Below, in pieces: positions 2,269 through 63,841 of a stretch of DNA of 64,000 bases (within the stretch, counting starts at the first letter, position 1; every line of letters starts with the position of its first letter). Made by a program: the position numbers and the translations under genes. The stretch is from Bacteroidota bacterium. GTDB taxonomy: Bacteria > Bacteroidota > Bacteroidia > UKL13-3. A model generated the notes under the pieces. That model was not told the origin of the DNA, did not search any database, and worked only from the letters and a program-made list of their open reading frames with translations. The DNA lies in NCBI GenBank assembly GCA_947464275.1, contig CANHVU010000001.1:122993-186992 (forward strand), read 5' to 3'.

Positions 2269-3714
2269 TTAAACTAAGTTCATTTTTATTCTTTTGCCAA
2301 TTTCTTCGATGTCGGCTCGGAATTTCTTGTCAGTTTCCATTAAGTCGTTTACTGTTTGGCAAGCATGAATAACAGTTGAGTGATCGCGTCCACCAAAGTG
2401 CATACCTATGGTTTTTAACGATGATTTGGTTAAATCTTTAGCATAATACATGCTTATTTGACGAGCTTGAACTATTTCGCGTTTTCTTGTTTTTGATTTT
2501 ACTTGTTCTACTGGAATGGTAAAATAATCACAAACTAATTTCTGAATAAATTCAATTGAAATTTCACGTGTATTGTTCTTCACAAAGTTTTTCAAAATTT
2601 GTTTAGCCAAATCAAGAGTTACTTCTTTTTTGTTTAACGATGATTGTGCTAACAAACTAACCAAAGCACCTTGTAATTCGCGCACATTGGTATTGATATT
2701 ATGTGCTACATATTCTACCACATCACGATGTAAGTTGATACCATCATTATACATCATATGTTCCAAAATAGCTAAACGAGTTTCAAAATCGGGCGACTGT
2801 ATATCGGCAGACAAACCCCATTTAAACCTGCTTAATAAACGCTCATCCATTCCTTTTAAGTCTTTAGGAGCTCTATCGCTTGTTAGAATTAATTGTTTGC
2901 CTTGTTGATGTAAATGATTAAAAATGGTAAAGAAAATTTCTTGTGTTTTTTGTTTGTTTTCCAAGAACTGAACATCATCTACAATTAATACATCTACTTG
3001 TTGGTAGTAGTTTAAAAAATCTTGATTTGAGTTATTGCGTATAGCTTCTACAAACTGATTAGTAAATTTTTCAATGGGAACATACAATACAATTTTGTTT
3101 TTGTTGTTTTGTTTCACCATGTTACCAATAGCGTGTACTAAGTGGGTTTTACCCATACCCGTTTCACCAAAAAACATCAATGGATTAAAGGCAGTTCCGC
3201 CCGGTTTAGAAGCTACCGACATTCCAGCTGCTCTAGCTAGGCGGTTGTTATCTCCTTCAATATAATTATCAAAAGTTAGGTTGTGATTTAAGTTAGCGTC
3301 AATATTTACCTTTTTTAAGCCTGGAATTACAAACGGGTTTTTAATGTTGGCATTCATAGCCATTCCTAAACCAGCCTCTTGAGAGTCCATTTTTGAACTT
3401 TGACTACCTGGCAAATTTACTATATAAGGATTTGAGTTGGAGGTACCGTTTTCAACAATAATATTGTATTCTAATCGTGCACCTGTACCTAAAATTTGTT
3501 TTAAAGTTTTTTTCAATAAGCTTACATAATGTTCTTCTAACCATTCGTAAAAAAACTGGCTAGGAACTTGAATAGTAAGGATTTTATTTTCTAATTTGAT
3601 GGGTTTGATTGGCTCAAACCAAGTTCTAAAGCTTTGAGGGTTCACATTATCTTGAATCAATTTCAAGCAATTATTCCACACTGTTTCACACGACTGTTCA
3701 CTCATAATATTCAT
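2269..3714 (-). CDS. dnaA: chromosomal replication initiator protein DnaA
   Basis: Walker A GETGMGKTHL, Walker B VDVLIVDDVQFL, and a C-terminal DNA-binding signature (...GGRDHSTVIHACQ). The track ORF extends to 3774 via a TTG. The ATG at 3714 (MNIMSEQ...) or 3705 is a more likely start. Confidence 0.9.
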   Translation of the reverse strand: MNIMSEQSCETVWNNCLKLIQDNVNPQSFRTWFEPIKPIKLENKILTIQVPSQFFYEWLEEHYVSLLKKTLKQILGTGARLEYNIIVENGTSNSNPYIVNLPGSQSSKMDSQEAGLGMAMNANIKNPFVIPGLKKVNIDANLNHNLTFDNYIEGDNNRLARAAGMSVASKPGGTAFNPLMFFGETGMGKTHLVHAIGNMVKQNNKNKIVLYVPIEKFTNQFVEAIRNNSNQDFLNYYQQVDVLIVDDVQFLENKQKTQEIFFTIFNHLHQQGKQLILTSDRAPKDLKGMDERLLSRFKWGLSADIQSPDFETRLAILEHMMYNDGINLHRDVVEYVAHNINTNVRELQGALVSLLAQSSLNKKEVTLDLAKQILKNFVKNNTREISIEFIQKLVCDYFTIPVEQVKSKTRKREIVQARQISMYYAKDLTKSSLKTIGMHFGGRDHSTVIHACQTVNDLMETDKKFRADIEEIGKRIKMNLV

Positions 3715-3963
3715 ACCTTTTTCCGACTGTAAAAGTGTGTTAAAAAGTTTACACAAAAAAGTTTTTTTCAACAATATTATCCGAATTGTGGTAAAAAAAA
3801 CTTTTGGTGCTGATTTATAGCTACAAATATTTTTTTGTTATTTTTTTGTTGCAAAATAGCTAACAATTTGTTTGCAAAATGTGCATTACTCAATGTTACA
3901 AATTAAATATAAAATATGATAATCAAACAGTTGCAATGCCTTGATAATACTATGTTTTCAACA

Positions 3964-19669: not shown

Positions 19670-19784
19670 ACGCAAAATTCAAATTTGTTTTACAAATATA
19701 AGTTCATAAATTATTTAAATGGTCTTTTTCAGGTCAGATATTTTATAAATATTTGAAAACTTGATTAAAACAAACCTTTCGTTC

Positions 19785-22826: not shown

Positions 22827-22889
22827 AATAGGCAATAGGCAATAGGCAATAGGCAATAGGCAATAGGCAATAGGCAATAGGCAATAGCT
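22827..22889. repeat. perfect heptanucleotide tandem repeat (AATAGGC/GGCAATA) x ~8.7
   Basis: Read directly. It is followed by degenerate heptamers GCTAAAG-GCTAGAA-GCCAGTT-GCCAGAA (22890-22916) and two AACTAAGAACTAA direct repeats before the ALDH start. Confidence 0.9.
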
Positions 22890-28100: not shown

Positions 28101-29194
28101 TCTGAATTGCTTGGGTAATAAACAGGATTCACTAAGGTGTTATTTGAAAAATAGCCCGTACCATTGGTTGTCCAAATTTTTGAACCTGAATTTGCAGTGG
28201 TACTGGCATTTAAAAACAGAAAATCATTTTTACAAATTCTTTGATCTACCCCCGCATTTGAAATTGCAAGTGGATTAAAATAAATTTCAACAGTATCGGC
28301 CACAAAAGAGCATGGACCTGCTGGGTCATCGGTTGTTAATATTAATTTTACAAAACCATTTAATATATCATTATTGCTAGGTATATAATTTGTATTTAAG
28401 TTGGTAGAGTTATTAAATATACCGGTACCTAATGAACGCCAACTAGCACTAGATGCTGACCCTCCAATACTTCCATTCAAATTAACTGAAGTTGTATTAT
28501 TACATAAATTTTGATTTACCCCCGCATTTACTATTGGCATTTGTAAAAAGTAAACAGTCATGGAATCTAACGCAGCTGCGCATGGACCTGCAGGATCATT
28601 GGTTGTTATTGTTAAAACAACAGAACCATTAGCAATATCTGCTATACTTGGTGTATAAACCGCATTTAAGGTTGAGGAATTAACAAATGAACCGCTTCCC
28701 GAAGTTGTCCAATTTATGTATGGTGCCACACTATTAACAGTTCCATTTAAATTAATTATGCTATTTGCGCACACCGTTTGATTTGTTCCAGCATCTACAA
28801 AGGGTCTAGCATTGATATTAATATTAGCCCCATTGTCTGTACCTACAACAAAAGGATCATTAGCCAAAACCCTCACTTTATATAAATAACTTGTACTACA
28901 ATTAAGGGGTATTGTACACAAAATATTTCCGCTGCTAGTTGATGTTATTTGACCAATATTTATTGGCGAAATAAAATTTCCATTTGTGTCACTTAATTGT
29001 ACCGCAAAAATATTGGATGGATTAAAACTGCCATTTATAACGTAACTAATGTTTACGGTTTCACCAGCACAAAATGAATTTACAACCAAAGAATTGGTTG
29101 TAATTGTTTGTGCATTTATTTTGAAACTTAATAGTGTTGTAAAAGTTAAAATTACTATTAATAGAATAGAATTTATATGGGATTTTGTTGGCAT
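25157..29194 (-). CDS. large T9SS-secreted surface protein: ~10 tandem ~85-aa repeats, PKD/Ig-like region, type-A T9SS C-terminal sorting domain
   Basis: Signal peptide is present. The repeat consensus is NAG.DQ.IC......L.G...G.A.S..W...G.G.F......N..Y.PS..D...G...L.L.T.DP.GPC...D...I.F. The CTD is IRIYPNPTLGIFNI...FYVIKLVGKNEIFTAKILKN. Confidence 0.8.
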   Translation of the reverse strand: MPTKSHINSILLIVILTFTTLLSFKINAQTITTNSLVVNSFCAGETVNISYVINGSFNPSNIFAVQLSDTNGNFISPINIGQITSTSSGNILCTIPLNCSTSYLYKVRVLANDPFVVGTDNGANININARPFVDAGTNQTVCANSIINLNGTVNSVAPYINWTTSGSGSFVNSSTLNAVYTPSIADIANGSVVLTITTNDPAGPCAAALDSMTVYFLQMPIVNAGVNQNLCNNTTSVNLNGSIGGSASSASWRSLGTGIFNNSTNLNTNYIPSNNDILNGFVKLILTTDDPAGPCSFVADTVEIYFNPLAISNAGVDQRICKNDFLFLNASTTANSGSKIWTTNGTGYFSNNTLVNPVYYPSNSDVLLGKLMFTFKTSNPNFICDNTVDSMEVTIDSLAIADAGNDIGICKTTLFAALNGQISGSATSASWSTSGSGTFDNVNVLNTNYYPSVFDKNKGFIYLTLTTNDPSGPCSFGVDSLKITFENPAQIDAGPDQVICENDLVNLKGSFNNVVSFASWTVSNNPAYISFDTVTTYMPNLVDISNKFFYVRYKSDDPAGDCKSVSDSILITINSLATVSAGISQTICTNESSVLLNGFIGGAANSAKWKTTGTGYFSDSTILNARYFPSNADKQLGSIKLILGTNNPVGPCESAFDTIQLSFNLSAVSNIINDTSICENDLIYLNANTNYVSGNAAWYTNGSGGFNNNLSLTPIYFPSENDKTLGHVTFTFITNDPFNSCSNSIDSTKIFINRMAFANAGLDQAICNSNNSILLIGSINGSATSAKWTSTGSGSFNNSDSLVTIYTFSNSDKQSGLVKLILTTNDPLGPCSSVSDTLNVILYQKPIVNAGQNQSICGNSPINLNGSYNSAAVFAKWLSSNSINYSSFDSVTTYYPTQTDINLGKITFTLISSDPVGPCNEAKDSITVTFFKPAFADAGLDQTVCATNNRIDLMGNISGTATSLNWSTINGKGTFDKIDTMSTKYRPTTTDFANKLVSIVLSTNDPFGPCPAAKDTMDIIFKDSLVNFEAETVNNTCDSSIVAFINTTLSSGNTFVWNFGDSTATTTLPNPRHIYKKTGVFNVKLVATNDVGCTEVLYKNTVVNNIKPKADFEVNYLNQCFLNNAFELNNTSNGGTESWVVGNEWSFGDNTFSTATFPTTKNFGYPGKYFIKLKVIAANNCTDTLVKVVSVTSGPIKPTVSLVSGNILKASTGQAYQWYFNGSPITGANLQTFQPTNFGFYSVRIDSSNGCGTLSDEFEFKYTSIKGINADNEIRIYPNPTLGIFNIDSELQLDYIVYDFSGKEVLLGHKNSTIESIDLGGFKSGFYVIKLVGKNEIFTAKILKN

Positions 29195-45952: not shown

Positions 45953-47011
45953 ATGTTAAATAAAGCAAAAATATATTGGTATTGCCAGTTTGGAGGTTGG
46001 TTTGTTTTTATTTTAATAGAACTAATTACATACATTAACGAAACGGGTTTTGCAATTGGTTTAATCATAAATGCAATGGTAAACTGGATAGTTTGTATTC
46101 TTTTAACTCATTTTTATCGATTAATAATTATAAAGGCAAATTGGTTGGTTTTACCTTTAAAAAAACTAATTCCACGTGGGGTTTTCATGATTGTATTAAT
46201 ATCTGTGCCATTAACACTTATAAACATTGTTTTAGACTTTTACACAGTTCCATCTGATACAGAAAATTATAATATTCAGGATGCAATTCTATCTCAAATT
46301 GATTTTGCACGTTTGCCTATTTTCTTTTTCAATTTATCTAAATACGTTTTTTTATGGGCTATTATTTATCATTTCTTTTTATTTTGGGAAAGATTACTCA
46401 AAACTGAAACCGATAAATTTGAGTTACAAGCAATTTTAAAAGAAACACAATACAACAATTTAAAGACACAATTAAATCCTCATTTTTTATTTAATTCATT
46501 AAATGGAATAAGAACTTTGGTAGATATTGACCCAGAAAATGCTAAAGAAGCAATCACCAGATTAAGTAGCCTTTTGCGAGGTTCTTTAAAAATGGAGAAA
46601 CATAAAACTGTTACGTTAGCTGATGAATTACAAACAGTTAATGATTATTTAGCCATAGAAAAAATTAGATTTGACGAACGCTTGAAAACTGTGTTGGAAA
46701 TTGCACCTGAAACGTTAAAAACAAATTTACCTCCCATGATGATTCAAACATTGGTAGAAAATGGTATTAAGCACGGAATCAGTAACTTAAAAAACGGTGG
46801 CACCATTTTAATCAAATCATTTACAAAACATCAAAACACCGTTATTCAAATTATCAATAGTGGTCAATTCAATCCAAAACATGAAAGTTCTGGACTTGGA
46901 ATTGAAAACACGAAAGAAAGATTGCGCATATTGTTTGAGGACAAAGCCTCATTTAGTATTAAAAACCAAGACGAACAAAACGTATTAACCGAAATAATTT
47001 TACCATTATGA
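45953..47011 (+). CDS. LytS/YehU-type sensor histidine kinase
   Basis: N-terminal TM helices. His_kinase motif LKTQLNPHFLFNSLNGIRTL. HATPase_c C-terminus. Confidence 0.8.
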   Translation: MLNKAKIYWYCQFGGWFVFILIELITYINETGFAIGLIINAMVNWIVCILLTHFYRLIIIKANWLVLPLKKLIPRGVFMIVLISVPLTLINIVLDFYTVPSDTENYNIQDAILSQIDFARLPIFFFNLSKYVFLWAIIYHFFLFWERLLKTETDKFELQAILKETQYNNLKTQLNPHFLFNSLNGIRTLVDIDPENAKEAITRLSSLLRGSLKMEKHKTVTLADELQTVNDYLAIEKIRFDERLKTVLEIAPETLKTNLPPMMIQTLVENGIKHGISNLKNGGTILIKSFTKHQNTVIQIINSGQFNPKHESSGLGIENTKERLRILFEDKASFSIKNQDEQNVLTEIILPL

Positions 47012-47727
47012 TCAAAACAATCATTATAGACGATGAAAAATTAGCCCGCGAAGGCTTAAAAAACCTTTTAAAAGAGTTTAACGAAATTGAAATTATTGCT
47101 GAAGCAAGCAATGCCGATGAAGGGTTAGATTTAATTGACAAACTTAAACCTCAATTAATTTTTTTAGATATTCAAATGCCTGAAAAAACTGGTTTTGAAA
47201 TGTTAGAAGAGCTAATTGAGACCCCTGCTATTATTTTTACAACTGCCTATAATGAATTTGCCATTAAAGCTTTTGAAGTAAATGCGCTTGATTATATTTT
47301 AAAGCCCATAGAAACCAGTCGTTTACGTGAAGCTATTTCAAAAGCTAAAAAACAAATAGCTGCTGACGAAGAACAAAAAGGAAATGGAAAACTAGCAGAA
47401 GATAGCCAAGTTTTTATTAGAGATGGCGACCGTTGCTGGTATGTAAAATTAACTGATATTCGACTAATTGAAAGCAACGGAAATTATGCGAAGATCTTTT
47501 TTGATAAATACCAACCGTTAATTCACAGAACTTTAAACTCATTGGACGAGCGCTTAAGTCCGAAAATGTTTTTTAGAGCTAATCGCCAACAAATTGTAAA
47601 CTTAAATTACATCGATAAAATTGAGCCTTTCTTTAACAGTGGACTTTTGTTTTACATGAAAGATGGTTCTAAGGTTGAAGTTAGCAGACGCCAAGCTGTT
47701 AAGTTTAAAGATATGATGAGTTTATAA
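47008..47727 (+). CDS. LytTR-family response regulator
   Basis: Receiver domain (IIIDDE...LIFLDIQMP) plus a C-terminal LytTR domain. It overlaps the kinase gene by 4 nt. Confidence 0.85.
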   Translation: MIKTIIIDDEKLAREGLKNLLKEFNEIEIIAEASNADEGLDLIDKLKPQLIFLDIQMPEKTGFEMLEELIETPAIIFTTAYNEFAIKAFEVNALDYILKPIETSRLREAISKAKKQIAADEEQKGNGKLAEDSQVFIRDGDRCWYVKLTDIRLIESNGNYAKIFFDKYQPLIHRTLNSLDERLSPKMFFRANRQQIVNLNYIDKIEPFFNSGLLFYMKDGSKVEVSRRQAVKFKDMMSL

Positions 47728-47728
47728 A

Positions 47729-48271
47729 ATGAACGAACAATTTTTGATGAGTGTAAATAAGCAATTTTTATACTACAAATCGCTTGCAGAAAAATCGTTT
47801 GATCAATTAGAAGAAAATCAGCTTTTTGTTCAAAAAAATGAAGACACCAACAGCATTGCAACAATTGTAAAACACCTAGCAGGAAATATGCTTTCACGTT
47901 GGACAGATATATTTAACTCTGATGGCGAAAAACCTTGGCGCATGCGCGATGCTGAATTTGAAAACGATTTAAAAACTAAAGAACAAATGCTCCTTACTTG
48001 GAATAAAGGTTGGAACTGCTTTTTAGAAACACTAAATAGTTTACAAGCATCTGATTTAGAACGAATTATTTATATTAGAAATGAAGGTCATACTGTGATG
48101 GATGCAATTAACAGACAATTAGCACATTATAGTTATCATATTGGGCAAATTGTTTTTTATAGCAAGCAATTAAAAGCTGGCACGTGGAACAGTTTATCCA
48201 TCCCTAAAAACAATTCGAATGCATACAATGACAAAAAATTTGCGCAAGAAAAAAGCATTAAACTTTACTGA
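47729..48271 (+). CDS. DinB/YfiT-like (DUF1572-type) four-helix-bundle protein
   Basis: Size and motif pattern (HLAGNM...W...HY.YHIGQI). Tentative. Confidence 0.4.
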   Translation: MNEQFLMSVNKQFLYYKSLAEKSFDQLEENQLFVQKNEDTNSIATIVKHLAGNMLSRWTDIFNSDGEKPWRMRDAEFENDLKTKEQMLLTWNKGWNCFLETLNSLQASDLERIIYIRNEGHTVMDAINRQLAHYSYHIGQIVFYSKQLKAGTWNSLSIPKNNSNAYNDKKFAQEKSIKLY

Positions 48272-48290
48272 CAGTGAATTGAAGTAGTAT

Positions 48291-48971
48291 TTACTTCAAT
48301 TCATCTTCAAAAATTATTCTACTTTGTCCCTCCGGCAAATTATTTAAATGTACATTTCCAATTCTTACACGTTTTAAGCTAGTAACCAAATAATCAAGCT
48401 TATAACACATTCGCCTGATTTGGCGATTTAAACCCTGAACCAAAATGATTTTAAAAGTAAAATCATCCATTTTTTGAACAACGCAAGGCAGCGTAACTTG
48501 TCCTAATATTTCAACTCCCCTACTCATTTTTAATATAAAATCATCGGTAACTACTTTATTTACAGTTACTATATATTCTTTTTCTACCTCGCTTTTTGGA
48601 TTAATGGTTTTGTTAAATAAATAACCATCGTTGGTTAAAATGAGCAGTCCTTCCGATTCTTTGTCAAGCCTACCAACAGGAAAAAGTTTTTCATCAAAAT
48701 TGATTAATTCCTTTAAGTTATTGGGTATTTCGGGGTTTAAAGTACACTCTATTCCTCGTGGTTTATGTAATGCGACATAAATTATTTTTTTGCCTTCCTG
48801 AATAACTTCTCCATTCAGTTCTACCCAATCCGTTTCTTTTATTAAAATATTATCATTCACATTTACAGCATTTACCAACACCACGTTAGCTGCAATTATT
48901 TCTTTTGCCTTAGCATTTGAAATCTTCATTTTTTTAACCAATAAATACTGCAACTTTTCTCTGTAAGACAT
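48291..48971 (-). CDS. rRNA pseudouridine synthase (RsuA/RluB/RluF family) with N-terminal S4 domain
   Basis: Motifs HKPRG and VGRLDKESEGLLILTNDG. Confidence 0.8.
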   Translation of the reverse strand: MSYREKLQYLLVKKMKISNAKAKEIIAANVVLVNAVNVNDNILIKETDWVELNGEVIQEGKKIIYVALHKPRGIECTLNPEIPNNLKELINFDEKLFPVGRLDKESEGLLILTNDGYLFNKTINPKSEVEKEYIVTVNKVVTDDFILKMSRGVEILGQVTLPCVVQKMDDFTFKIILVQGLNRQIRRMCYKLDYLVTSLKRVRIGNVHLNNLPEGQSRIIFEDELK

Positions 48972-49675
48972 TATACACGATCACTTAACTTTTGAGCAAA
49001 ATAAAGACAAAATTTAGCAGTAATCTCATGTAAGATAAAAAACTTACATTTTTATGCTTAAAAGTATTCATAAAGCCTCATAAGTATTAAGTAACTAGCT
49101 AGCGCGACAATCAAAAAAAGATTTCAGACAATTTGAAATGATAAAAAATGGTGGTTTTCATTATTTGGAGCCAATTCGTGTATAAATGACTGATATTTTC
49201 AAATATTTTGATAAAAACATTTCATTTTTTTAGGTTTTGGTAACTTTTATGCTTTCATGATAATACAATATTACAAACGATTATTCACACTCAAATTAGC
49301 CATTTTAAGCTTATCAATTTACACCTTATTACATATTATAGACTTCATTCCATTACTATCAAAAAAGTGTCTTAAATCGAAGAAAAAACATTATAAATTG
49401 GCTTCAATATAATGGCCCTACCAAACGCGACATTTAAACTTAACGCTTGTTAGTTTGTAAAATAAATTGGATATAAAGAAATGTTTTGATTTAAAGAAAA
49501 TTACCAAAACAACTATTTGGTTCATTTTGTGTTCATTAAGTAAATTGTATGTTGAACGTAAAATTTTCAATAAAAATATACACGTTTTAAAAATGTGCGT
49601 TTAAGTGTTAGGTAATCAATGTACAAATTGCTTTTATCACCACTATTTTCGCATAGTACATAAAGAAAAAATATT

Positions 49676-50920
49676 TTGATCAAGTATAATCAATATCAAT
49701 TGCCAAATGGCTTAACTGTAATTCATCATTTTGATGATAGCACACAACTTTGTGTTTTAAATTTACTTTATAACGTAGGTTCAAAACACGAAAATCCTAA
49801 CAAAACGGGCTTTGCGCATTTGTTTGAACATTTGATGTTTGGCGGATCTATCAACATTGAAGATTTTGACACTGAGCTTCAAGACGCTGGAGGAGAAAGC
49901 AACGCATTCACCAGTAACGATATAACCAATTATTACTTAACACTTCCTGCAAATAACATAGAAACAGGCTTTTGGCTTGAAAGCGACAGAATGTTAAGCT
50001 TGGACTTTAACCAAGAAAGTTTAGATATTCAGCGCAATGTAGTTATTGAAGAATTTAAGGAAAGATACCTGAATCAACCTTATGGAGATGTATGGTTAAA
50101 AATATTACCCTTAGCGTATAAAGTTCATCCTTACAGTTGGCCTACCATTGGCAAAGAAATTAGCCATATTGAAAATGCGACACTTGATGATGTAAAAGCT
50201 TTTTTCAAAAACTTTTATTGCCCAAATAATGCCGTATTAGTTATTGCCGGAAATATTGATTTTGATAAATGTAAAGCGTTGATTAGTAAATGGTTTGAAC
50301 CTATTCCGGCTCAAAATTACGTGAAACCTAATTATGAACAAGAACCCATTCAAACTGAAGCAAGATATGAAACTGTTTATGCTGATGTACCAGCAAACAT
50401 GATTGTAAAAGCCTATCATATGCCTGCAAGAACAGATGAAAAATATTATGCAGCAGATATGTTAACTGATATTTTAGGAGCAGGTAAGTCTTCAAGATTT
50501 TACACTGAATTGGTTAAAAATAAAAACCTTTTTAGCGAGTTAGATGCCTATATCAGTGGTGATGTAGAAGCCGGATTATTGATGATTGAAGGAAAAATCA
50601 GTGAAGGTGTTTCGGTTGAAGCTGCAGAAAAAGCTATTTTAGATTTATTGGAAAACTTTAAACAAAATGGAGTAGGAGAGGATGAATTAACCAAAATAAA
50701 AAACAAGTCAGAAACGAATATTCGTTTCAATGATATGACTGCACTTAACAAAGCTATGAAATTAGCTTATGCGTGGGTTTTAGGCGATGTAGAATTGGTT
50801 AATAAGGAAATTGATTTATACTTAAAAGTTACTCAGGAAGACATTTTAAAAGCCTCTAACGAAATAATTACTCCCAACAATTGTTCAACCCTTTATTACC
50901 TTTCAAACCATGCTAAATAG
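49676..50920 (+). CDS. M16 family zinc peptidase (active subunit)
   Basis: Inverted zinc motif HLFEHLMFGGS (HxxEH). Apparent TTG start. Confidence 0.75.
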   Translation: MIKYNQYQLPNGLTVIHHFDDSTQLCVLNLLYNVGSKHENPNKTGFAHLFEHLMFGGSINIEDFDTELQDAGGESNAFTSNDITNYYLTLPANNIETGFWLESDRMLSLDFNQESLDIQRNVVIEEFKERYLNQPYGDVWLKILPLAYKVHPYSWPTIGKEISHIENATLDDVKAFFKNFYCPNNAVLVIAGNIDFDKCKALISKWFEPIPAQNYVKPNYEQEPIQTEARYETVYADVPANMIVKAYHMPARTDEKYYAADMLTDILGAGKSSRFYTELVKNKNLFSELDAYISGDVEAGLLMIEGKISEGVSVEAAEKAILDLLENFKQNGVGEDELTKIKNKSETNIRFNDMTALNKAMKLAYAWVLGDVELVNKEIDLYLKVTQEDILKASNEIITPNNCSTLYYLSNHAK

Positions 50921-52190
50921 AACACAAGCACCATTTGCTGCTGAAATTACCAATATAAAAATTAAGGAAGCGGTTGAAAATACCTTACAAAATGGAATAA
51001 AAGTTTATGCCATAAATGTGGGTAATGAAGAGGTTTTAAAACTTGATTTTATATTTAATGCAGGAGCTATAGCCCAGCAAATAAAGGGACAGGCAAACTT
51101 TACAGCCAAAATGTTAAGTGAAGGAACTAGTAAATATTCTGCCGCAGAAATAGCTGAAAAACTAGACTTTTATGGTGCCTATTTTCAAGCTAAAAGCGGA
51201 ACTGATGAAGCCACACTAACGTTGTATTGTATCAATAAACACTTAGCTAATTGTTTGCCATTTATTGTTGAAATACTTACAGATAGTATTTTTCCTGAAA
51301 AAGATTTAGCTATTTTAAAGAAAAATACCATCCAAAACTTAATAGTTAATGAAGAAAGAAATTCTTATTTGGCTAGGAGAGTTTTCAATCAATCGGTGTT
51401 TGGGAATACTGTGTACGGAAGTTTTTCTACAAAAGAAGATATTCAGAATATTGACAGAAAAGATTTGGTAAGTTTTTATAAAACACATTACCAGCAAGGA
51501 ATCAAGTATATTATCGTTTCTGGTTTTGTAAATGATACTGTAATAAACACCATTTCAAGCAATTTTGGAACTAGTACATTCTCAAAAAATTCTGATTTAA
51601 AAACTTCTTATCAAGGTAAAACATTTGTACAAGAAAATATTTTCATAGAAAAAACATCATCAGTTCAAAGCGCCATTAGAATTGGTAAAAAATTATTCAA
51701 TCGAAATAACCCTGATTTCAGAGAAATTCAGTTATTAAACTTAATTCTTGGTGGTTATTTTGGATCACGATTAATGAAAAATATTCGAGAAGAAAAAGGG
51801 CTTACTTACGGTATATATTCAGCAATTGAAGCTTATCCAAATGATGCATGCTGGTATATAGATACTGAAATAAATAATGATTTATGTGAACAAGGAATAG
51901 AAGAAATCTATAAAGAAGTAAAGAAACTATGTACTGAAAAAATAGGAACTGATGAATTGAGAGTTGCTAAAAACTATCTTTTAGGTTCATTTTTGAGAAG
52001 TATAGATGGCCCTTTTAGTTTAGCCGATAGATTTAAAATACTACAAGATTATAACTTAACCTATCAATATTATTACCAGTATATTGAGATTATAAAGAAT
52101 AGCACACCTGAAAGATTAATAGAACTTGCCAATAAATATTTAAACGAAGAAACTTTTACAAAAGTAAGAGTAGGTGCTAATACCAAATGA
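50910..52190 (+). CDS. M16 family peptidase (non-catalytic/partner subunit)
   Basis: Pitrilysin-like fold without HxxEH. It overlaps the upstream gene by 11 nt. Confidence 0.65.
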   Translation: MLNRTQAPFAAEITNIKIKEAVENTLQNGIKVYAINVGNEEVLKLDFIFNAGAIAQQIKGQANFTAKMLSEGTSKYSAAEIAEKLDFYGAYFQAKSGTDEATLTLYCINKHLANCLPFIVEILTDSIFPEKDLAILKKNTIQNLIVNEERNSYLARRVFNQSVFGNTVYGSFSTKEDIQNIDRKDLVSFYKTHYQQGIKYIIVSGFVNDTVINTISSNFGTSTFSKNSDLKTSYQGKTFVQENIFIEKTSSVQSAIRIGKKLFNRNNPDFREIQLLNLILGGYFGSRLMKNIREEKGLTYGIYSAIEAYPNDACWYIDTEINNDLCEQGIEEIYKEVKKLCTEKIGTDELRVAKNYLLGSFLRSIDGPFSLADRFKILQDYNLTYQYYYQYIEIIKNSTPERLIELANKYLNEETFTKVRVGANTK

Positions 52191-53926
52191 TAAAAAAGCT
52201 TTACATATTATTTCTTTTGTTTATTACAGCAAATATTGCTCAGGCACAGTATTGCTCAAAATTAAGAAGAATATGTAGAGCAAATTTAAATAACGATATT
52301 TTTTGGAACTATAATCAAAGTGTTCCATGTGGAACATTTAAAGAATACAGAATATATGGAAGGGATAAAACATCGAATCCATACATCTTGCTAAATACGG
52401 AAACAAACCAAAACATAATAAATTGGAGTCATTTAAATGCTAACGTACCTAGTAATAAAAACTGGGATTATTATGTTGAAACTGTTTTTAATTGTTCAGG
52501 TGTTGATAATTTATGTTATTCAGATACTCAAAATGTATCTGAATTTTATTTACCTAAAAGTAAAATAGCTTATGTAACTGTTGATATATTGACCAATAAA
52601 CCAATAATAGTTTGGGAACAAAATACATTTCCTAGTTTTTGGTATATAGATTTGTTTAATGACAATGCAATAAAAACAGGAATTGTAGATACTTTTTTTA
52701 TTGATAATGTTACTGGACTAAATCCTAAATCAGGTAGTTTAAAATATGTAATCGCGGCAGTTGATAGTTGTACCAAAAGATGGGATTATCTTCCAGAAGA
52801 TTATCATTACACCATTTATAGTACAGCCAGTATTGATACTTGTGTAAATAGAATAAGCTTAAATTGGACAAAATATATCGGTTGGGGTAATAATATAAAA
52901 TACTACTATATTTATAAAAATGTTAATGGTGCAGGTTTTCAATTGATAGATAGCGTTTCAAATACAACAACAAATTATATAGATAGAATAAATAGTAATG
53001 AGACTATTGATTATTATATTATGGCGGTAAATAATACAAATGAAAAATATAAAAGTAATTCAAACTTAGTAACATTGGTATCTGGTAAAAGAATTGCAAA
53101 TCATGATTTAAAAATAAATTATGTAACTTTAAATAATTACATCAATATAAATATAAACTTTAATCAATTCTCGGATATTGACTCAATACAAATTTTAAAA
53201 TCAAATAATAACCAAACCTATTTATTATTTAAAAAAGTAAAAACTACAAATTCTCCATTAAATGAAATAGATAATAGCGAAGATGGAAATAGAAGAGTAT
53301 ACTATTATTTAGTTTCTAAAAATTCTTGTAATCAATGGACTGATACAACCAAAATTTCTAGTAATATATATTTAGAACAACAAGAAGAAATAATAGAAAA
53401 TAAACTATGGTGGAATACATATTCCACGTGGAACAGTGGCATAGAAAAATACGTAATATACAGAGAAACAAGGCTTAACGCACAAATAATTAATCCTTTT
53501 TCACAAAGATACGTTGGAATAGATACCAACTATAAGGATAATATAAGCGATAATACTATTGATGGTTCTACATTATGTTATAAGGTTATCGGTACTGAAA
53601 ACATAAGTGGTCATACCAGTCAATCAAATACAGTATGTATTGTTGGAGGAATGAAAGTTTATTTTCCAGATGGAGTTATTGCAAGAAATTCTTCTAATGT
53701 TTTTAAACCCATTGGTGTTTATATAGATTATAAAAAATCTAAAATGTATATTTATAACAGGTGGGGTAAATTAGTTAAAGAAATAACTGATTTAAATATT
53801 GGATGGGATTTAACCGATGAAAATAATAATTTTGCAGAAACTGATACCTACGTATATGATGCAAAAATGGTTGGATTAGATGGAAAAGAAATAAACAAAT
53901 CAGGAACTATAACAGTTATAAGATAA
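52187..53926 (+). CDS. T9SS type-B sorting-domain (gliding-motility-associated C-terminal domain) protein
   Basis: Signal peptide is present. Type-B CTD ...MYIYNRWGKLVKEI...GWDLTDENNNFAETDTYVYDAKMVGLDGKEINKSGTITVIR. Confidence 0.7.
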   Translation: MIKKLYILFLLFITANIAQAQYCSKLRRICRANLNNDIFWNYNQSVPCGTFKEYRIYGRDKTSNPYILLNTETNQNIINWSHLNANVPSNKNWDYYVETVFNCSGVDNLCYSDTQNVSEFYLPKSKIAYVTVDILTNKPIIVWEQNTFPSFWYIDLFNDNAIKTGIVDTFFIDNVTGLNPKSGSLKYVIAAVDSCTKRWDYLPEDYHYTIYSTASIDTCVNRISLNWTKYIGWGNNIKYYYIYKNVNGAGFQLIDSVSNTTTNYIDRINSNETIDYYIMAVNNTNEKYKSNSNLVTLVSGKRIANHDLKINYVTLNNYINININFNQFSDIDSIQILKSNNNQTYLLFKKVKTTNSPLNEIDNSEDGNRRVYYYLVSKNSCNQWTDTTKISSNIYLEQQEEIIENKLWWNTYSTWNSGIEKYVIYRETRLNAQIINPFSQRYVGIDTNYKDNISDNTIDGSTLCYKVIGTENISGHTSQSNTVCIVGGMKVYFPDGVIARNSSNVFKPIGVYIDYKKSKMYIYNRWGKLVKEITDLNIGWDLTDENNNFAETDTYVYDAKMVGLDGKEINKSGTITVIR

Positions 53927-54339
53927 TGATATACTATAATAATATAGATGATAAATATATAATTAAAGAAAAAAGAAAAATAAATAATTGGATAAAATTA
54001 TGTATAGATGAAGAAGGAAAAGAAATAAATACCATTTCATTTAATCTTTGTAGTGATGAATATATATTACAACTAAATAATGAAGTACTACAACATGATT
54101 ATTATACTGATATAATCACTTTTGAGTTGAACGAAAAAAATGAACCAATTGAAGGTGATATATATATAAGCATTGATAGGGTAAAAGATAATGCCAAAAT
54201 ATTAAATATACCTTTTATAACTGAACTACAAAGAGTAATAATACATGGGGTTTTACATTTATGCGGTTATAAAGATAAAAACACTGAAGAAGAAAAACAG
54301 ATGCGTGAAAAAGAAAACTATTATTTAAATAAAATATAA
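53926..54339 (+). CDS. ybeY: rRNA maturation RNase YbeY
   Basis: Metal-binding motif HGVLHLCGYKD. Length 137 aa. Its start overlaps the upstream stop. Confidence 0.85.
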   Translation: MIYYNNIDDKYIIKEKRKINNWIKLCIDEEGKEINTISFNLCSDEYILQLNNEVLQHDYYTDIITFELNEKNEPIEGDIYISIDRVKDNAKILNIPFITELQRVIIHGVLHLCGYKDKNTEEEKQMREKENYYLNKI

Positions 54340-54341
54340 AA

Positions 54342-54355
54342 GTTCCACGTGGAAC
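54342..54355. promoter_or_regulatory. perfect 14-bp palindrome GTTCCACGTGGAAC in the 29-bp ybeY-mnmG gap
   Basis: Read directly. It is a member of a locally over-represented TTCCACGTGGAA family. Confidence 0.5.
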
Positions 54356-54368
54356 AAGGAGAAAAATA

Positions 54369-56231
54369 ATGTTAGGACAATACGATATAATAGTAGTAGG
54401 AGCAGGACATGCAGGATGTGAGGCTGCTGCTGCTGCTGCAAACATGGGAAGTAAGGTTTTACTTATAACAATGGATATGAATAAAATTGCTCAGATGAGT
54501 TGTAATCCAGCAATGGGAGGGGTAGCTAAAGGTCAAATAGTTAGAGAAATAGATGCTTTAGGAGGTTATTCTGGAATTGTAACAGATAATTCAGCTATTC
54601 AATTTAGACTACTAAATAGATCTAAAGGGCCCGCAATGTATAGCCCAAGAGCACAAAGCGATAGAATGTTATTTTCACAATATTGGAGAGAACATTTAGA
54701 ACAAATTCCTAATGTAGATTTTTGGCAAGATATGGTTAGTGGCCTGTTAATTGAAAATGGAAAATTAGTAGGAGTTAAAACTGGAATGGGAATGAATATC
54801 TACTCAAAAGCAGTAGTTTTAACCAACGGAACTTTTTTAAATGGAATTATTCATATAGGACAAAAACAATTTGGTGGCGGAAGAATAGGAGAAAAAGCTG
54901 CAAGTGGAATAACAGAACAATTAATCAATTTGGGTTTTGAAAGTGGCAGGATGAAAACTGGAACTCCACCAAGGGTAGATGGCAGAACATTGAACTATGA
55001 GGCAATGGAAATTCAAGAAGGTGATGAAAATCCAGGTAAGTTTTCTTATACAAATACTAAACCATTAACCAATCAAAGACCATGTTGGATAACTTATACC
55101 AACGAGAAAGTTCACGATATATTGAGAACAGGCTTTGATGATTCTCCCATGTATACAGGAAGAATAAAAGGTTTAGGCCCAAGATATTGTCCTTCCATAG
55201 AAGATAAAATAAACAGATTTGCTGAAAGAGATAGACATCAAATATTTGTAGAACCTGAAGGTTGGAATACTGTAGAGATTTATGTAAATGGATTTTCTAC
55301 TTCATTACCTGATGAAATACAATTGAAAGCAATGCGATTAATTCCGGGCTTTGAAAATGCAAAAATGTTTAGACCAGGTTATGCAATTGAATATGATTAT
55401 TTTCCACCTACCCAATTAAAACTTACATTAGAAACCCATCTAATGGAAAACTTGTATTTTGCCGGACAAATAAATGGAACAACTGGATACGAAGAAGCTG
55501 CATGTCAAGGATTAATGGCTGGTATAAATGCACATTTAAAAATTAAAGAAAAAGAAGAATTTATTCTAAAAAGATCAGAAGCTTATATTGGAGTTTTAAT
55601 TGACGATTTGGTAAACAAAGGAACTGACGAACCTTATAGAATGTTTACCTCAAGAGCTGAATATAGAATCTTGTTACGTCAAGATAATGCAGATATTAGA
55701 TTAACAGAAATTGGTAATAAAATTGGTTTAGCAAGTGATGAAAGACTTGAAAATGTTAAACAAAAAATTGAAAACACCAACGAAATTATTAAACATTTTA
55801 AGAAGACCTCTGTAACACCAGACGAAATAAATCCGTTATTGGAAGAGTACAATACTACACCGATTCCTCAAAACTATAAATTAATGCAAATTGTAACTAG
55901 GCCACAATTAGATATTAATATTTTAAAAGACAAGGTGGAATCAATTGAAAAATTTTTAAATACATACAACGAAGACGAAATACTTCAAGCTGAAATATTG
56001 ATGAAATATGAAGGCTATCTAGAGAAAGAACAATTGATGGTTGAAAAAATGAATCGATTAGAAAATGTAAATATTAATGAAGATTTTGATTTTACATCAA
56101 TTCATAACTTAAGTAGTGAAGCTCGACAAAAATTAAATAAACAAAAACCAAGAACTTTAGGCCAAGCAGCAAGAATAAGTGGAATATCTCCTTCTGATAT
56201 TTCAGTTTTAATGATACATTTGGGCCGATAA
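54369..56231 (+). CDS. mnmG: tRNA uridine-5-carboxymethylaminomethyl(34) synthesis enzyme MnmG (GidA)
   Basis: FAD motif YDIIVVGAGHAGCEAA. Length 620 aa. C-terminal GidA helical domain. Confidence 0.92.
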   Translation: MLGQYDIIVVGAGHAGCEAAAAAANMGSKVLLITMDMNKIAQMSCNPAMGGVAKGQIVREIDALGGYSGIVTDNSAIQFRLLNRSKGPAMYSPRAQSDRMLFSQYWREHLEQIPNVDFWQDMVSGLLIENGKLVGVKTGMGMNIYSKAVVLTNGTFLNGIIHIGQKQFGGGRIGEKAASGITEQLINLGFESGRMKTGTPPRVDGRTLNYEAMEIQEGDENPGKFSYTNTKPLTNQRPCWITYTNEKVHDILRTGFDDSPMYTGRIKGLGPRYCPSIEDKINRFAERDRHQIFVEPEGWNTVEIYVNGFSTSLPDEIQLKAMRLIPGFENAKMFRPGYAIEYDYFPPTQLKLTLETHLMENLYFAGQINGTTGYEEAACQGLMAGINAHLKIKEKEEFILKRSEAYIGVLIDDLVNKGTDEPYRMFTSRAEYRILLRQDNADIRLTEIGNKIGLASDERLENVKQKIENTNEIIKHFKKTSVTPDEINPLLEEYNTTPIPQNYKLMQIVTRPQLDINILKDKVESIEKFLNTYNEDEILQAEILMKYEGYLEKEQLMVEKMNRLENVNINEDFDFTSIHNLSSEARQKLNKQKPRTLGQAARISGISPSDISVLMIHLGR

Positions 56232-56236
56232 AAAAT

Positions 56237-57127
56237 ATGGAAAAATTAACTACCTGTTTAGTTTGTGGAAATACTGAATTTACCACAGAACTTACTTGCA
56301 AAGATTTTGTAGCAACCAACGAAAATTTTGAGCTAAATAGATGTTCAAACTGTAGCTTTTTATTTACCAATCCAAGACCAAATACTGAAGAAATTGGCAA
56401 GTATTATCAAAGCGATAAATACGTATCACATGCTGGAAAAAAGGAAGGACTTGGCCTAATGTATAAAGTTTATGATATAGTAAGAAATTATAGCATTAAA
56501 GAAAAACTTGATTTAATAAAAAACTATAACACAACAGGTAGTTTAATGGATTTAGGTTGCGGATTGGGTTATTTTTTACATGGAGCTGTAATGGATAAAA
56601 CATTTAATTGTATAGGAGTAGATGTTAGCGATGATGCAATTAATTATGTAAAATCTACCTTTGGTTATGAAGTAAAAAATGAGAATGAATTAGATAATTT
56701 TGAACATAAAAATTTTGATGTTATAACCCAATGGCACGTATTAGAACATGTACATTATTTAAATGAACGAATGGTTCAATTAAGCAATTTGTTGAAAGAT
56801 GATGGAACCATGTTTATAGCTGTTCCAAATTCAGATAGTTGGGATGCTAAAAACTACAAACAATTTTGGGATGGTTATGATGTACCAAGACATTTGTATC
56901 ATTTCAATCAAAAAAGTTTTACATTATTAATGGAAAAACATGGCTTCAAAATTGTAGATACAAAACCATTATTATTTGATGCACCATACATTTCCATGAG
57001 AAGCGAAACACATAAGCAAAATAATTTTACTATGATAAGAGGAGCAGTAAATGGAATTATTTCAAATAATAATGCAAGCATAAAAGGTGATTATTCGTCA
57101 TTACTTTTTGTGGTAAAAAAAGCTTAA
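56237..57127 (+). CDS. class I SAM-dependent methyltransferase with N-terminal zinc-ribbon
   Basis: Cys pairs CLVCGN...CSNCSF. SAM motif LMDLGCGLGYF. Confidence 0.65.
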   Translation: MEKLTTCLVCGNTEFTTELTCKDFVATNENFELNRCSNCSFLFTNPRPNTEEIGKYYQSDKYVSHAGKKEGLGLMYKVYDIVRNYSIKEKLDLIKNYNTTGSLMDLGCGLGYFLHGAVMDKTFNCIGVDVSDDAINYVKSTFGYEVKNENELDNFEHKNFDVITQWHVLEHVHYLNERMVQLSNLLKDDGTMFIAVPNSDSWDAKNYKQFWDGYDVPRHLYHFNQKSFTLLMEKHGFKIVDTKPLLFDAPYISMRSETHKQNNFTMIRGAVNGIISNNNASIKGDYSSLLFVVKKA

Positions 57128-62554: not shown

Positions 62555-62570
62555 AAGGTAATAGAAAACA

Positions 62571-62608
62571 AAAAAGCCTAGTTTAAATTTTTAAACTAGG
62601 CTTTTTTG
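62571..62608. terminator. bidirectional rho-independent terminator
   Basis: A 14-bp stem AAGCCTAGTTTAAA/TTTAAACTAGGCTT is flanked by an A-run and a T-run. It lies between convergent pepA and clpX. Confidence 0.75.
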
Positions 62609-63841
62609 TTATGCAGCTTGTATTGTTTTATATTTCAATGCTTCAATTTTACTTTTTGCGTAAGCTAAATCAATTACAATTTTGCCTTTATTGGCTAAAT
62701 CTGGCGCATCGTACATTAAGTCAAGCATAATGGCTTCGCAAATGCTACGTAAACCACGTGCTCCTAATTTGAAATCAAATGCGGTATCAACAATTAATTC
62801 AACTACTTCATTAGTAAATTGCAAGTCGATTTTTTCTAAATCAAACAAGTGTTTGTATTGTTTGGTTAAGGCATTTTTAGGTTCAGTTAAAATATTGCGA
62901 AGCGCCTCTTTATCTAGTGGATTTAAGTGGCATAATACTGGTAAACGACCAATAATTTCAGGAATTAAACCAAAACTTCTTAAATCAGCAGGGCTAATGT
63001 ACTGCAACATGTTTTTATCGTTTACTTTGCCCAAATCATCTTCGTTTTTAAAACCAATTGCTTGAGTTTGTAACCTGCGTGCAATATGTCTATCAATTCC
63101 ATCAAAAGCACCTCCACAAATAAATAAAATATTGCTGGTGTTTATTTGAATCATTTTTTGATCAGGATGCTTTCGGCCACCTTGTGGTGGTACATTTGCA
63201 ATAGTTCCTTCTAAAATTTTTAGTAAAGCTTGTTGCACCCCTTCGCCACTCACATCGCGCGTAATGCTTGGGTTATCGCTTTTACGGCTAATTTTATCAA
63301 TTTCGTCAATATATACAATTCCACGTTCAGCTGCTTCTACATTGTAATCAGCTGCTTGTAATAAACGGCTTAAAATACTTTCAACGTCTTCGCCTACATA
63401 ACCAGCTTCGGTAATTACAGTAGCATCGGCAATACAGAAAGGCACATCTAATACTTTTGCTAATGTTTTAGCTAATAATGTTTTACCTGTACCTGTTTCG
63501 CCAACTAGCATTACATTGCTTTTTTCTATTTCAATATCGCCTTTTTTGCTTTTTGAAAGTAAACGTTTAAAGTGATTGTAAACTGCTACACAAAGTACTT
63601 TTTTGGCTTCATCTTGGCCAATTACGTATTCATCTAAGTGTGCTTTAATTTGAGCAGGTTTAAGTAAAACTAGTTTGTTTAATGGTGTTGATGACTTAAC
63701 ATCGGCATCTTCACTAATAATTCTATAAGCTTGTTTGGTGCAATCTTCACAAATTAGTGCATCTAATCCAGCAATTAAAAATTGCACTTCATTTCTTCCA
63801 CGTCCACAAAACGAACATTTATCTTCGGTTTTCTTTGCCAT
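62609..63841 (-). CDS. clpX: ATP-dependent Clp protease ATP-binding subunit ClpX
   Basis: N-terminal zinc finger CSFCGR...CEDC. Walker [13 protein letters not shown]. Length 410 aa. Confidence 0.92.

Follow-up and report, generated by a model that had tools for sequence, protein, structure and literature searches.

The parS element is a centromere-like 16-bp palindrome that acts as the loading site for dimers of the CTP-dependent clamp protein ParB (Spo0J). Sites of this kind are typically origin-proximal (PMC7333895). In B. subtilis, parS conforms to the consensus TGTTNCACGTGAAACA (PMC7022226, Table 1) and provides the loading sites for both ParB and SMC (PMC7022226, PMC7333895). The consensus for M. 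xanthus, in which 22 sites are recorded, is TGTTCCACGTGGAACG (PMC7022226, Table 1). In P. aeruginosa, the sequence TGTTCCACGTGGAACA constitutes parS2 and parS3 and is bound by ParB both in vitro and in vivo, and mismatches in the core of the site lower ParB affinity (PMC4368675). A search of the literature yielded no report specific to parS in Bacteroidota.

Here, a palindrome repeated within a 64-kb stretch of DNA (the whole stretch analyzed, hereafter the window) was compared with these systems. The copies at 52321, 53420, and 54341 are very probably chromosomal parS sites for ParB. The repeated palindrome is an element of an already-known kind, normal for bacterial chromosomes, because it corresponds to known parS, present in three copies beside ybeY and mnmG and ~50 kb from dnaA. 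Since it is fully explained as a textbook element, it is not to be pursued as a new motif.

Features of the Predicted parS Sites

Each of the three sites matched 13 of the 14 specified positions of the parS consensus TGTTNCACGTGNAACA, with a core of either CACGTG or CATGTG. The predicted parS AGTTCCACGTGGAACA (54341..54356; no strand is assigned to this or any other copy of the palindrome) is a consensus match within the 29-nt spacer that separates the ybeY stop codon from the mnmG start codon. Its sole mismatch occupies the outermost position, and the perfect 14-bp palindrome GTTCCACGTGGAAC lies inside it. A second predicted parS, TATTCCACGTGGAACA (53420..53435), is located inside the gene for a 579-aa T9SS type-B sorting-domain protein, where it supplies the codons for Tyr-Ser-Thr-Trp-Asn; its one mismatch affects the second position of the left arm. 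The same gene contains a probable weaker parS, TGTTCCATGTGGAACA (52321..52336), which is read as Val-Pro-Cys-Gly-Thr and whose single mismatch sits in the CACGTG core. The site at 54341 is probably the strongest of the three, followed by that at 53420. Given the core mismatch and the common codons from which it is built, the predicted site at 52321 may be weak or fortuitous.

The 14-bp core of the 54341 site is identical to that of P. aeruginosa parS1-parS4 (TGTTCCACGTGGAACA, or the version ending ...AACC), and TGTTCCACGTGGAACA is the symmetrical C/G parS variant used by the lineage studied here. As in P. aeruginosa, a few sites are clustered within kilobases in the origin domain, and sites with one outer mismatch stand beside better ones. 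By analogy, a hierarchy like that of P. aeruginosa would be expected here, with core mismatches weakening binding (PMC4368675). Unlike in P. aeruginosa, all three sites fall short of a perfect 16-mer, and the sites flank ybeY and mnmG; parAB lies ~7 kb from oriC in PAO1, whereas here it is not nearby.

The same C/G consensus variant and tight clustering of copies are seen in M. xanthus, and the 14-bp core at 54341 is identical to the published parS of that organism (PMC7022226). By contrast with the ~22 copies of M. xanthus, there are three here, in another phylum and in DNA of different base composition (32% G+C). At this G+C content, the sites are built against both codon and composition bias. 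The Spo0J sites of B. subtilis, several of which are intragenic, have the same 16-bp architecture and degenerate position as those described here, and in both cases sites are tolerated in coding sequence and lie in the origin domain. The right arm, however, is GGAACA here and GAAACA in B. subtilis (the relative L016 has GAAACA), and the neighboring genes differ.

A ParB-family palindrome of similar length is also found in Bacillota. Jalal et al. are said to have described in 2020 this Noc-binding site (NBS), reportedly ATTTCCCGGGAAAT, together with the positions that distinguish it from parS. NBS has A at position 2, as does the 53420 site, but its core is CCCGGG, whereas the three sites here have CACGTG or CATGTG and do not qualify as NBS. 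NBS sites do not cluster near the origin but are dispersed and kept out of the terminus region, and Noc is not known outside Bacillota.

Genomic Setting and Proposed Role in Partition

The window contains dnaA, the gene for the replication initiator (2269..3774, minus strand; Pfam Bac_DnaA, Bac_DnaA_C, and DnaA_N), and is therefore origin-proximal, with dnaA ~50 kb from the predicted parS cluster. Directly upstream of the intergenic site is ybeY, which encodes an rRNA maturation RNase (53926..54339, plus strand; TIGR00043, PF02130), and directly downstream is mnmG (gidA), a classic origin-region gene (54369..56231, plus strand; PF01134 GIDA, E = 6.5e-163). The predicted parS sites are thus origin-proximal, with dnaA in the window and mnmG/gidA adjacent. 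No DnaA-box cluster that would mark oriC was detected in the window (13 boxes versus 21.5 expected), and the GC skew over 64 kb was uninformative. A 704-nt AT-rich gap (48972-49675) that was searched as an oriC candidate yielded no conserved block and no Rfam match.

No parA or parB gene was found in the window or in its flanks (10 kb on the left, 6 kb on the right). Neither the ParB GERRxRA box nor the ParA Walker A motif occurs in the window or these flanks, and no Par domain was detected in 40 ORFs scanned with Pfam. Given this result, a cognate reader in the source genome is assumed, and we infer that a ParB encoded elsewhere in that genome binds the three sites. By analogy with described partition systems, ParB would nucleate at the three predicted sites and slide onto several kilobases of flanking DNA. 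ParA would move the resulting partition complex, which would also load SMC condensin, and the origin region would as a consequence be segregated first. The sites would mark the partition locus near the origin in an AT-rich, uncultured lineage of Bacteroidia that is known from metagenomes alone. Such a predicted parS locus is of use in orienting and anchoring MAG scaffolds and predicts where ParB and SMC are loaded.

The 54341 site stops 13 nt short of the mnmG start codon, a placement that is conserved in relatives (4-13 nt in the source lineage), and the gene for a LytTR response regulator lies 6.6 kb upstream. Both observations would fit an operator of a local dimeric transcription factor for mnmG or a ybeY-mnmG operon, with the intragenic copies being incidental. 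Such an operator is nonetheless very unlikely, as the sequence is exactly the pan-bacterial parS that recurs by mnmG, dnaA, and parAB in many phyla, and as the two-component genes are missing in some relatives that keep the sites (L016 and L018). LytTR regulators recognize direct repeats and are not known to recognize 16-bp palindromes. A LytTR operator was accordingly rejected, both on site architecture and because relatives without the regulator keep the sites. Moreover, a regulatory side-effect needs no second protein, because parS-bound ParB can dampen adjacent transcription. It is doubtful that loading of ParB at the predicted parS doubles as a gate on mnmG transcription or translation, perhaps also on ybeY read-through; if it did, expression of the tRNA-modification and ribosome-maturation genes would be coupled to the chromosome-segregation cycle.

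Word Statistics and Excluded Copies

The original prediction described a locally over-represented palindrome family of at least five copies, and the over-representation was borne out both by word counts and by the consensus statistic. Exact copies of the word TTCCACGTGGAA are located at 53422 and 54343, and a one-mismatch form, TTCCATGTGGAA, is located at 52323. The two exact sites give a both-strand tally of 4, in which the palindrome is counted twice, versus 0.003-0.009 expected on that tally. For CACGTGGAAC, 3 sites were observed versus 0.028 expected with the palindrome counted once (p ~4e-6), and the palindrome family is the most over-represented word set of the window after a heptamer tandem repeat. 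Unrelated top words of the window reach p ~2e-6, similar to CACGTGGAAC, and the window k-mer statistics alone do not clearly survive this look-elsewhere effect.

The decisive statistic is the match to an independent, pre-existing motif, namely the parS consensus TGTTNCACGTGNAACA. Three sites in the window have one mismatch or fewer and none has two, whereas 200 order-3 Markov simulations produced no site with one mismatch or fewer and an order-0 estimate gives ~0.009 such sites per 64 kb. The 3-mismatch class (7 seen versus 2.55 per simulated window) is not clearly enriched. Across ~80 kb read from the source genome, the only sites with two or fewer mismatches are the three described, all within 2.0 kb.

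These three sites belong together; the other two copies of the proposed family are not members. The copy AATTCCACGTGGGGTT (46168..46183), in a LytS-type histidine kinase gene, encodes Ile-Pro-Arg-Gly and carries 6 consensus mismatches. Given that its orthologs read CCTCGAGG, CCAAGGGG, and CCTCGTGG, its DNA sequence is not conserved, and this copy is a coding coincidence. The copy GCTGGCACGTGGAACA (48176..48191), in a DUF1572/DinB_2 gene, encodes Thr-Trp-Asn-Ser and has 3 mismatches, with the right arm alone intact, and is a chance-level half-site; with the three parS sites set aside, the window has 4 occurrences of the heptamer GTGGAAC/GTTCCAC versus ~3.3 expected (order-0). The corresponding versions of TTCCACGTGGAA, TTCCACGTGGGG at 46170 and TGGCACGTGGAA at 48178, each differ from it at two positions.

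Positions 48181, 53422, and 54342 had been placed correctly, whereas 46169 was off by 1 and 52332 should have been 52322. The extension CACGTGGAACAG, described as common to three copies, is exact in two (48181 and 53425), the third being CACGTGGAACAA. The shared extension CACGTGGAACAGT is no sign of a longer motif: the Thr-Trp-Asn-Ser at 48182 and that at 53426 are specified by identical codons. That the palindrome is a protein-recognition word and not an RNA structure is supported. The original prediction nevertheless left the choice between a regulator, a nucleoid or partition protein, and a modification-associated site unmade and did not recognize the canonical parS. Its listing of a partition protein was apt, in that the sites match the parS of ParB, and nothing supports a modification-associated site.

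CACGTG is the PmlI/Eco72I site, and the core is thus a type II recognition palindrome; in addition, a gene for a SAM-dependent methyltransferase (56237-57127) follows mnmG. Against these two observations, which would accord with a restriction-modification or DNA-methylation target, the bare core CACGTG is present at 7 sites, where order-0, -1, and -4 Markov models expect ~4-6 and order-2 and -3 models expect ~2.7. At this number, which is at or somewhat above the Markov expectation (~2.6-6), CACGTG is not avoided, and the modest excess is largely made up of the parS copies themselves. Furthermore, conservation extends over 14-16 bp rather than 6 bp. The methyltransferase falls into generic class I families acting on small molecules or RNA, and synteny of its gene extends to all relatives. 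No match to a DNA methyltransferase family was found near mnmG. The palindrome is therefore not a short avoided motif, and a role as a target of modification is extremely improbable.

Conservation in Related Loci and Across Phyla

Conservation of the predicted parS sites was assessed in 19 related loci (L001-L019; 317 kb in total), in which YbeY is 100-57% identical. A parS-like site was present in the ybeY-mnmG spacer of 19/19 loci, though the length and sequence of the spacer change. This intergenic site has 1 consensus mismatch in L001-L017 and 2 in L018 and L019 (TGTTTCACGTGGAAAG); that of L016, AGTTTCACGTGAAACA, is the canonical parS form. Over the same relatives, the neighboring 704-nt spacer falls to ~50% identity. 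All sites with two or fewer mismatches in the 19 loci lie inside a conserved block of M16-peptidase, T9SS, ybeY, and mnmG genes. Nearly all are at three orthologous positions, the exceptions being one extra site in L016 and L017 and one in the M16 gene of L018 and L019. The two N positions of the consensus drift in relatives, with C/T in one arm and G/A in the other.

The 53420 site is kept down to L016, at 52% protein identity, and is lost in L018. All three of its testable codons (TAT, ACG, and AAC) are invariant in 8 orthologs, compared with a background of 35 of 199 comparable codons (17.6%). Two of the codons employed are rare, with ACG representing 6.1% of Thr codons and TCC 3.0% of Ser codons, and, given the peptide, codon usage yields a chance of ~4e-4 for the codon set observed. 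The one variable base of the site is consensus N5, and its change converts Ser to Phe. The site thus provides a small example of dual coding, in which rare codons (TCC, 3%; ACG, 6%) preserve a GC-rich palindrome with a predicted protein-binding function within a gene of a genome with 32% G+C, and the only base change tolerated, at a degenerate parS position, is one that alters the amino acid (Ser/Phe). The 52321 site persists in the majority of relatives; it is identical in L001-L009, has 2 mismatches in L014 and L016, and is degraded or lost in L010 and L012; given its common codons, coding constraint may explain part of this conservation.

These data bear on whether the words simply arise by chance from the coding of conserved peptides, with no function at the DNA level. 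Such an origin holds for the copies at 46168 and 48176, as well as for the shared CACGTGGAACAGT, in which Thr-Trp-Asn-Ser is encoded twice; the common codons at 52321 are compatible with it, and k-mer statistics from the window only are not decisive after multiple testing. As an account of the three predicted sites it is highly unlikely, given that three matches to an independent motif were found where ~0.009 would be expected, that the best copy lies between genes and stays conserved as its spacer is remodeled, and that the 53420 site is kept by invariant rare codons. For 53420 and 54341, it is already largely refuted. The intergenic and 53420 sites are under purifying selection at the DNA level.

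The palindromes can also be folded as 5-9-bp RNA hairpins (GUUCC-ACGU-GGAAC) with z-scores of -2.4 to -3.6, and a C-to-U change at consensus N5 would keep a G-U pair, as might be anticipated for a processing or stability element of the ybeY-mnmG transcript. However, any palindrome folds in this way, and the minimum-energy fold at 53420 pairs with a different upstream partner rather than with the palindrome. There is no Rfam match and no U-tract. Moreover, across phyla the word recurs in DNA irrespective of context or orientation, and its binding by ParB is proven in other bacteria. The palindrome is thus almost certainly not an RNA element of this type.

The distribution expected of parS was apparent in a cross-genome sample of arbitrary GTDB stretches that carry the 14-mer TTCCACGTGGAACA, drawn from many phyla and with at least 120 matches listed. 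Among the 120 matches listed, 80 (67%) had the full 16-mer, where ~1 in 16 would be expected, and 72 (60%) had at least two parS-like sites in 8 kb; a Myxococcus locus among them had 12 matches in 8 kb. Within 8 kb, mnmG was present in 44 (37%) of the 120 matches listed, dnaA in 15, the ParB GERRxRA box in 20, and the ParA Walker A motif in 25, versus a chance expectation of ~0.2% for each gene near the 14-mer. At least one of mnmG, dnaA, or a ParA/ParB signature was found within 8 kb in 72/120 of the matches listed. In at least 20 Bacteroidota loci among the matches listed, from the Flavobacteriales, Chitinophagales, Sphingobacteriales, Cytophagales, and Bacteroidales, parS occupies the ybeY-mnmG spacer or lies just 3' of mnmG, and parAB was adjacent to the mnmG-parS pair in 0/20 of these listed loci. 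Flavobacterium soli DSM 19725, a cultivable member of the Flavobacteriales, is one organism with the ybeY-parS-mnmG order. The chromosomal centromere of Bacteroidota therefore appears to be anchored to mnmG, with parAB unlinked. The 54341 site is orthologous to that of the ybeY-parS-mnmG arrangement found in other Bacteroidota.

Word statistics and parS identity

Scanning of the AT-rich window (28-35% G+C) located exact matches to TTCCACGTGGAA at 53422 and 54343, one copy with a single mismatch at 52323 and two copies with 2 mismatches at 46170 and 48178; the expectation for this word is 0.003-0.009 occurrences in the window (Markov orders 0-4). The original prediction had proposed at least five clustered copies of a palindrome within 8.2 kb, and all but two of its coordinates were right, 46169 being corrected to 46170 and 52332 to 52322. 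The extension CACGTGGAACAG, described as common to three copies, has two exact occurrences (48181 and 53425) and one with 1 mismatch (54346). A heptamer tandem repeat aside, the palindrome family is the top over-represented word set in the window, and a window-only p value of ∼4e-6 was obtained for three CACGTGGAAC sites with the palindrome counted once. Given that comparable p values were returned for unrelated top words, over-representation from window statistics alone is suggestive but not decisive.

Three sites, named by the start of their 16-mers, namely 52321 (TGTTCCATGTGGAACA), 53420 (TATTCCACGTGGAACA) and 54341 (AGTTCCACGTGGAACA), each match 13 of the 14 specified positions of the chromosomal consensus TGTTNCACGTGNAACA for parS, the 16-bp site bound by the partition protein ParB. 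No 2-mismatch parS sites were found in the window scan, and seven 3-mismatch sites were present versus 2.55 per simulated window. Sites with ≤1 mismatch did not occur in any of 200 order-3 Markov simulations (order-0 estimate, 0.009 per 64 kb), and because the consensus was defined independently of the window data, the match incurs no look-elsewhere penalty. The literature confirms the parS assignment at the level of sequence: TGTTNCACGTGAAACA is parS of B. subtilis and C. glutamicum, TGTTCCACGTGGAACG is that of M. xanthus, with 22 sites (PMC7022226, Table 1), and the perfect palindrome TGTTCCACGTGGAACA is P. aeruginosa parS2 and parS3 (PMC4368675). In P. aeruginosa, ParB binding is nearly as good at one-mismatch sites, and affinity drops when the CACGTG core is mismatched (PMC4368675). 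Judged by its sequence, the motif is real, functional-looking and equivalent to canonical, already known parS; its main use here would be to mark the origin domain in an uncultured lineage of Bacteroidia. An R-M target is contradicted, CACGTG not being avoided in the window, as is an RNA hairpin, for which no Rfam match was found and the predicted hairpins were trivial and inconsistent.

The two remaining copies, 46168 in the histidine kinase gene and 48176 in the DUF1572/DinB_2 gene, were rejected, leaving 52321, 53420 and 54341 as the members of the proposed family that match parS. Site 46168 departs from the consensus at six positions, and orthologs show synonymous drift in its CCACGTGG; in site 48176, only one arm is intact. 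Half-site heptamers beyond the three parS sites numbered 4 in the window versus ∼3.3 expected. The DUF1572/DinB_2 and T9SS-protein genes, which are unrelated, contain the same 12-mer, ACGTGGAACAGT, at 48182-48193 and 53426-53437, read in frame as Thr-Trp-Asn-Ser in both, so that CACGTGGAACAGT is common to the 48176 copy and 53425, and this coding coincidence gave the impression of an extended motif.

Gene context and conservation in relatives

The region encodes, on the + strand, a LytS-type histidine kinase (45953-47011), a LytTR response regulator (47008-47727) and DUF1572/DinB_2 (47729-48271), followed by an RluF-like pseudouridine synthase on the - strand (48291-48971) and, again on the + strand, two M16 peptidases (49676-52190), a 579-aa protein with a weak T9SS type-B sorting domain (52187-53926), ybeY (53926-54339) and mnmG/gidA (54369-56231). 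The 29-nt ybeY-mnmG spacer holds the perfect 14-mer of site 54341. Neither parA nor parB was found in the window or its -10 kb and +6 kb flanks; dnaA lies at 2269-3774 (-). E. coli-type DnaA boxes (TTATCCACA, ≤1 mismatch) numbered 13 versus 21.5 expected and were enriched nowhere in the 64 kb; thus, a replication origin is not evident beside dnaA or the parS cluster.

Nineteen related loci with synteny kept (317 kb in total) were found via YbeY homologs of 100-57% identity. All parS matches with ≤2 mismatches in this sequence fall within the M16-peptidase/T9SS-gene/ybeY/mnmG block, nearly all at orthologous positions, apart from one additional site in L016/L017 and one inside an M16 gene in L018/L019. 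The intergenic site is present in 19/19 loci despite changes in spacer length and sequence, and overlaps the ybeY stop codon in some. It has 1 mismatch to the consensus in L001-L017 and 2 in L018/L019, its two consensus N positions vary (C/T and G/A), and in L016 it reads AGTTTCACGTGAAACA, the canonical parS form. In a nearby control spacer of 704 nt (48972-49675), identity falls to ∼50% across these relatives and no block is conserved.

Within the T9SS gene, the 53420 site persists in relatives as distant as L016 (52% protein identity) and has been lost in L018. Among eight orthologs, 35/199 amino-acid-invariant, degenerate codons of this gene were codon-invariant, as were 3/3 testable codons within the site (TAT, ACG and AAC). 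In the window, ACG accounts for 6.1% of Thr, TCC for 3.0% of Ser and AAC for 29% of Asn codons. The sole variable base is consensus N5, where the change gives Ser to Phe. Conservation of the 53420 site reflects selection on DNA rather than protein, and a coding coincidence as the source of the 53420 and 54341 sites is contradicted. Site 52321 is kept in most relatives, is degraded in L010 and L012, and has common codons and a mismatch in the core; it is a probable weak parS site.

In L010 (3.34-Mb contig, 10415-10437), the database start of mnmG is a GTG within the parS core at 10423; homology to the window places the true start at the ATG near position 10435. Gene-calling software can be misled by a parS palindrome that lies directly upstream of a start codon.

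parS beside mnmG in other genomes

A TTCCACGTGGAACA scan over 185,579 species genomes returned at least 120 stretches, an arbitrary sample from many phyla. Among the 120 matches listed, the full 16-mer palindrome was present in 80 (chance, ∼1 in 16) and two or more parS-like sites lay within 8 kb in 72. mnmG was found within 8 kb in 44 and dnaA in 15, a ParB GERRxRA box in 20 and a ParA Walker A motif in 25, with at least one of these four in 72; the chance expectation for each gene is ∼0.2% of stretches.

In the 20 Bacteroidota loci among these matches (L020, L024, L027, L029, L036, L037, L039, L055, L066, L076, L079, L086, L090, L111, L114, L118, L126, L130, L132 and L139), parS lies in the ybeY-mnmG spacer or directly 3' of mnmG. 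The sources are Flavobacterium soli, Algibacter, Hwangdonia, Chryseobacterium, Maribacter, Chitinophaga, Daejeonella, Flammeovirgaceae, Marinilabiliaceae and several Bacteroidales, and at least five orders among the matches listed have mnmG-flanking parS. The spacer position predominates in the listed Flavobacteriales, Chitinophagales, Sphingobacteriales and Cytophagales, and the position just 3' of mnmG in the listed Bacteroidales; five perfect 16-mers occur in Chitinophaga solisilvae. The same 8 kb carried no ParA or ParB signature at any of the 20 loci. Given the 20 loci with parS at mnmG, the intergenic site of the window is, by sequence comparison, a local instance of a phylum-wide arrangement, and its interpretation as a local operator is contradicted. 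By analogy with studied systems (PMC7333895), ParB dimers would load at parS and become CTP-bound sliding clamps that spread over adjoining DNA; ParA-ATP gradients would move the ParB-parS complex, which would also recruit SMC (condensin), organising and segregating the origin region.

Other features of the window

The window's most over-represented words come from a heptamer repeated perfectly in tandem, (AATAGGC) x 8.7, at 22827-22887. The genes on either side of its 177-nt spacer encode an M1-peptidase-like protein (19761-22784) and an aldehyde dehydrogenase (22962-24509), and the repeat tract could be slippage-prone and phase-variable. Diverged DNA repeats inside the gene at 25157-29194 (-), spaced ∼270, 537 and 1071 nt apart, explain several of the repeated GC-rich words among the ranked k-mers (e.g. 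ACCTGCAGGATC and CAAGGCCCAACTGG); the gene encodes a 1345-aa T9SS cargo protein with a PKD domain and Por_Secre_tail.

The non-coding gap at 48972-49675 (25% G+C), which separates the divergently oriented genes for the RluF-like protein and the M16 peptidase, is long in all relatives (341-748 nt), with no conserved block ≥12 nt. It has no Rfam match, no ORF >51 aa, only one DnaA-box-like word and no sign of oriC, and is probably a promoter or regulatory spacer. Finally, the M17 aminopeptidase and clpX genes converge on a perfect 21-nt inverted repeat at 62567-62610 (AACAAAAAAGCCTAGTTTAAA / TTTAAACTAGGCTTTTTTGTT, arms 2 nt apart), which resembles a bidirectional intrinsic terminator.
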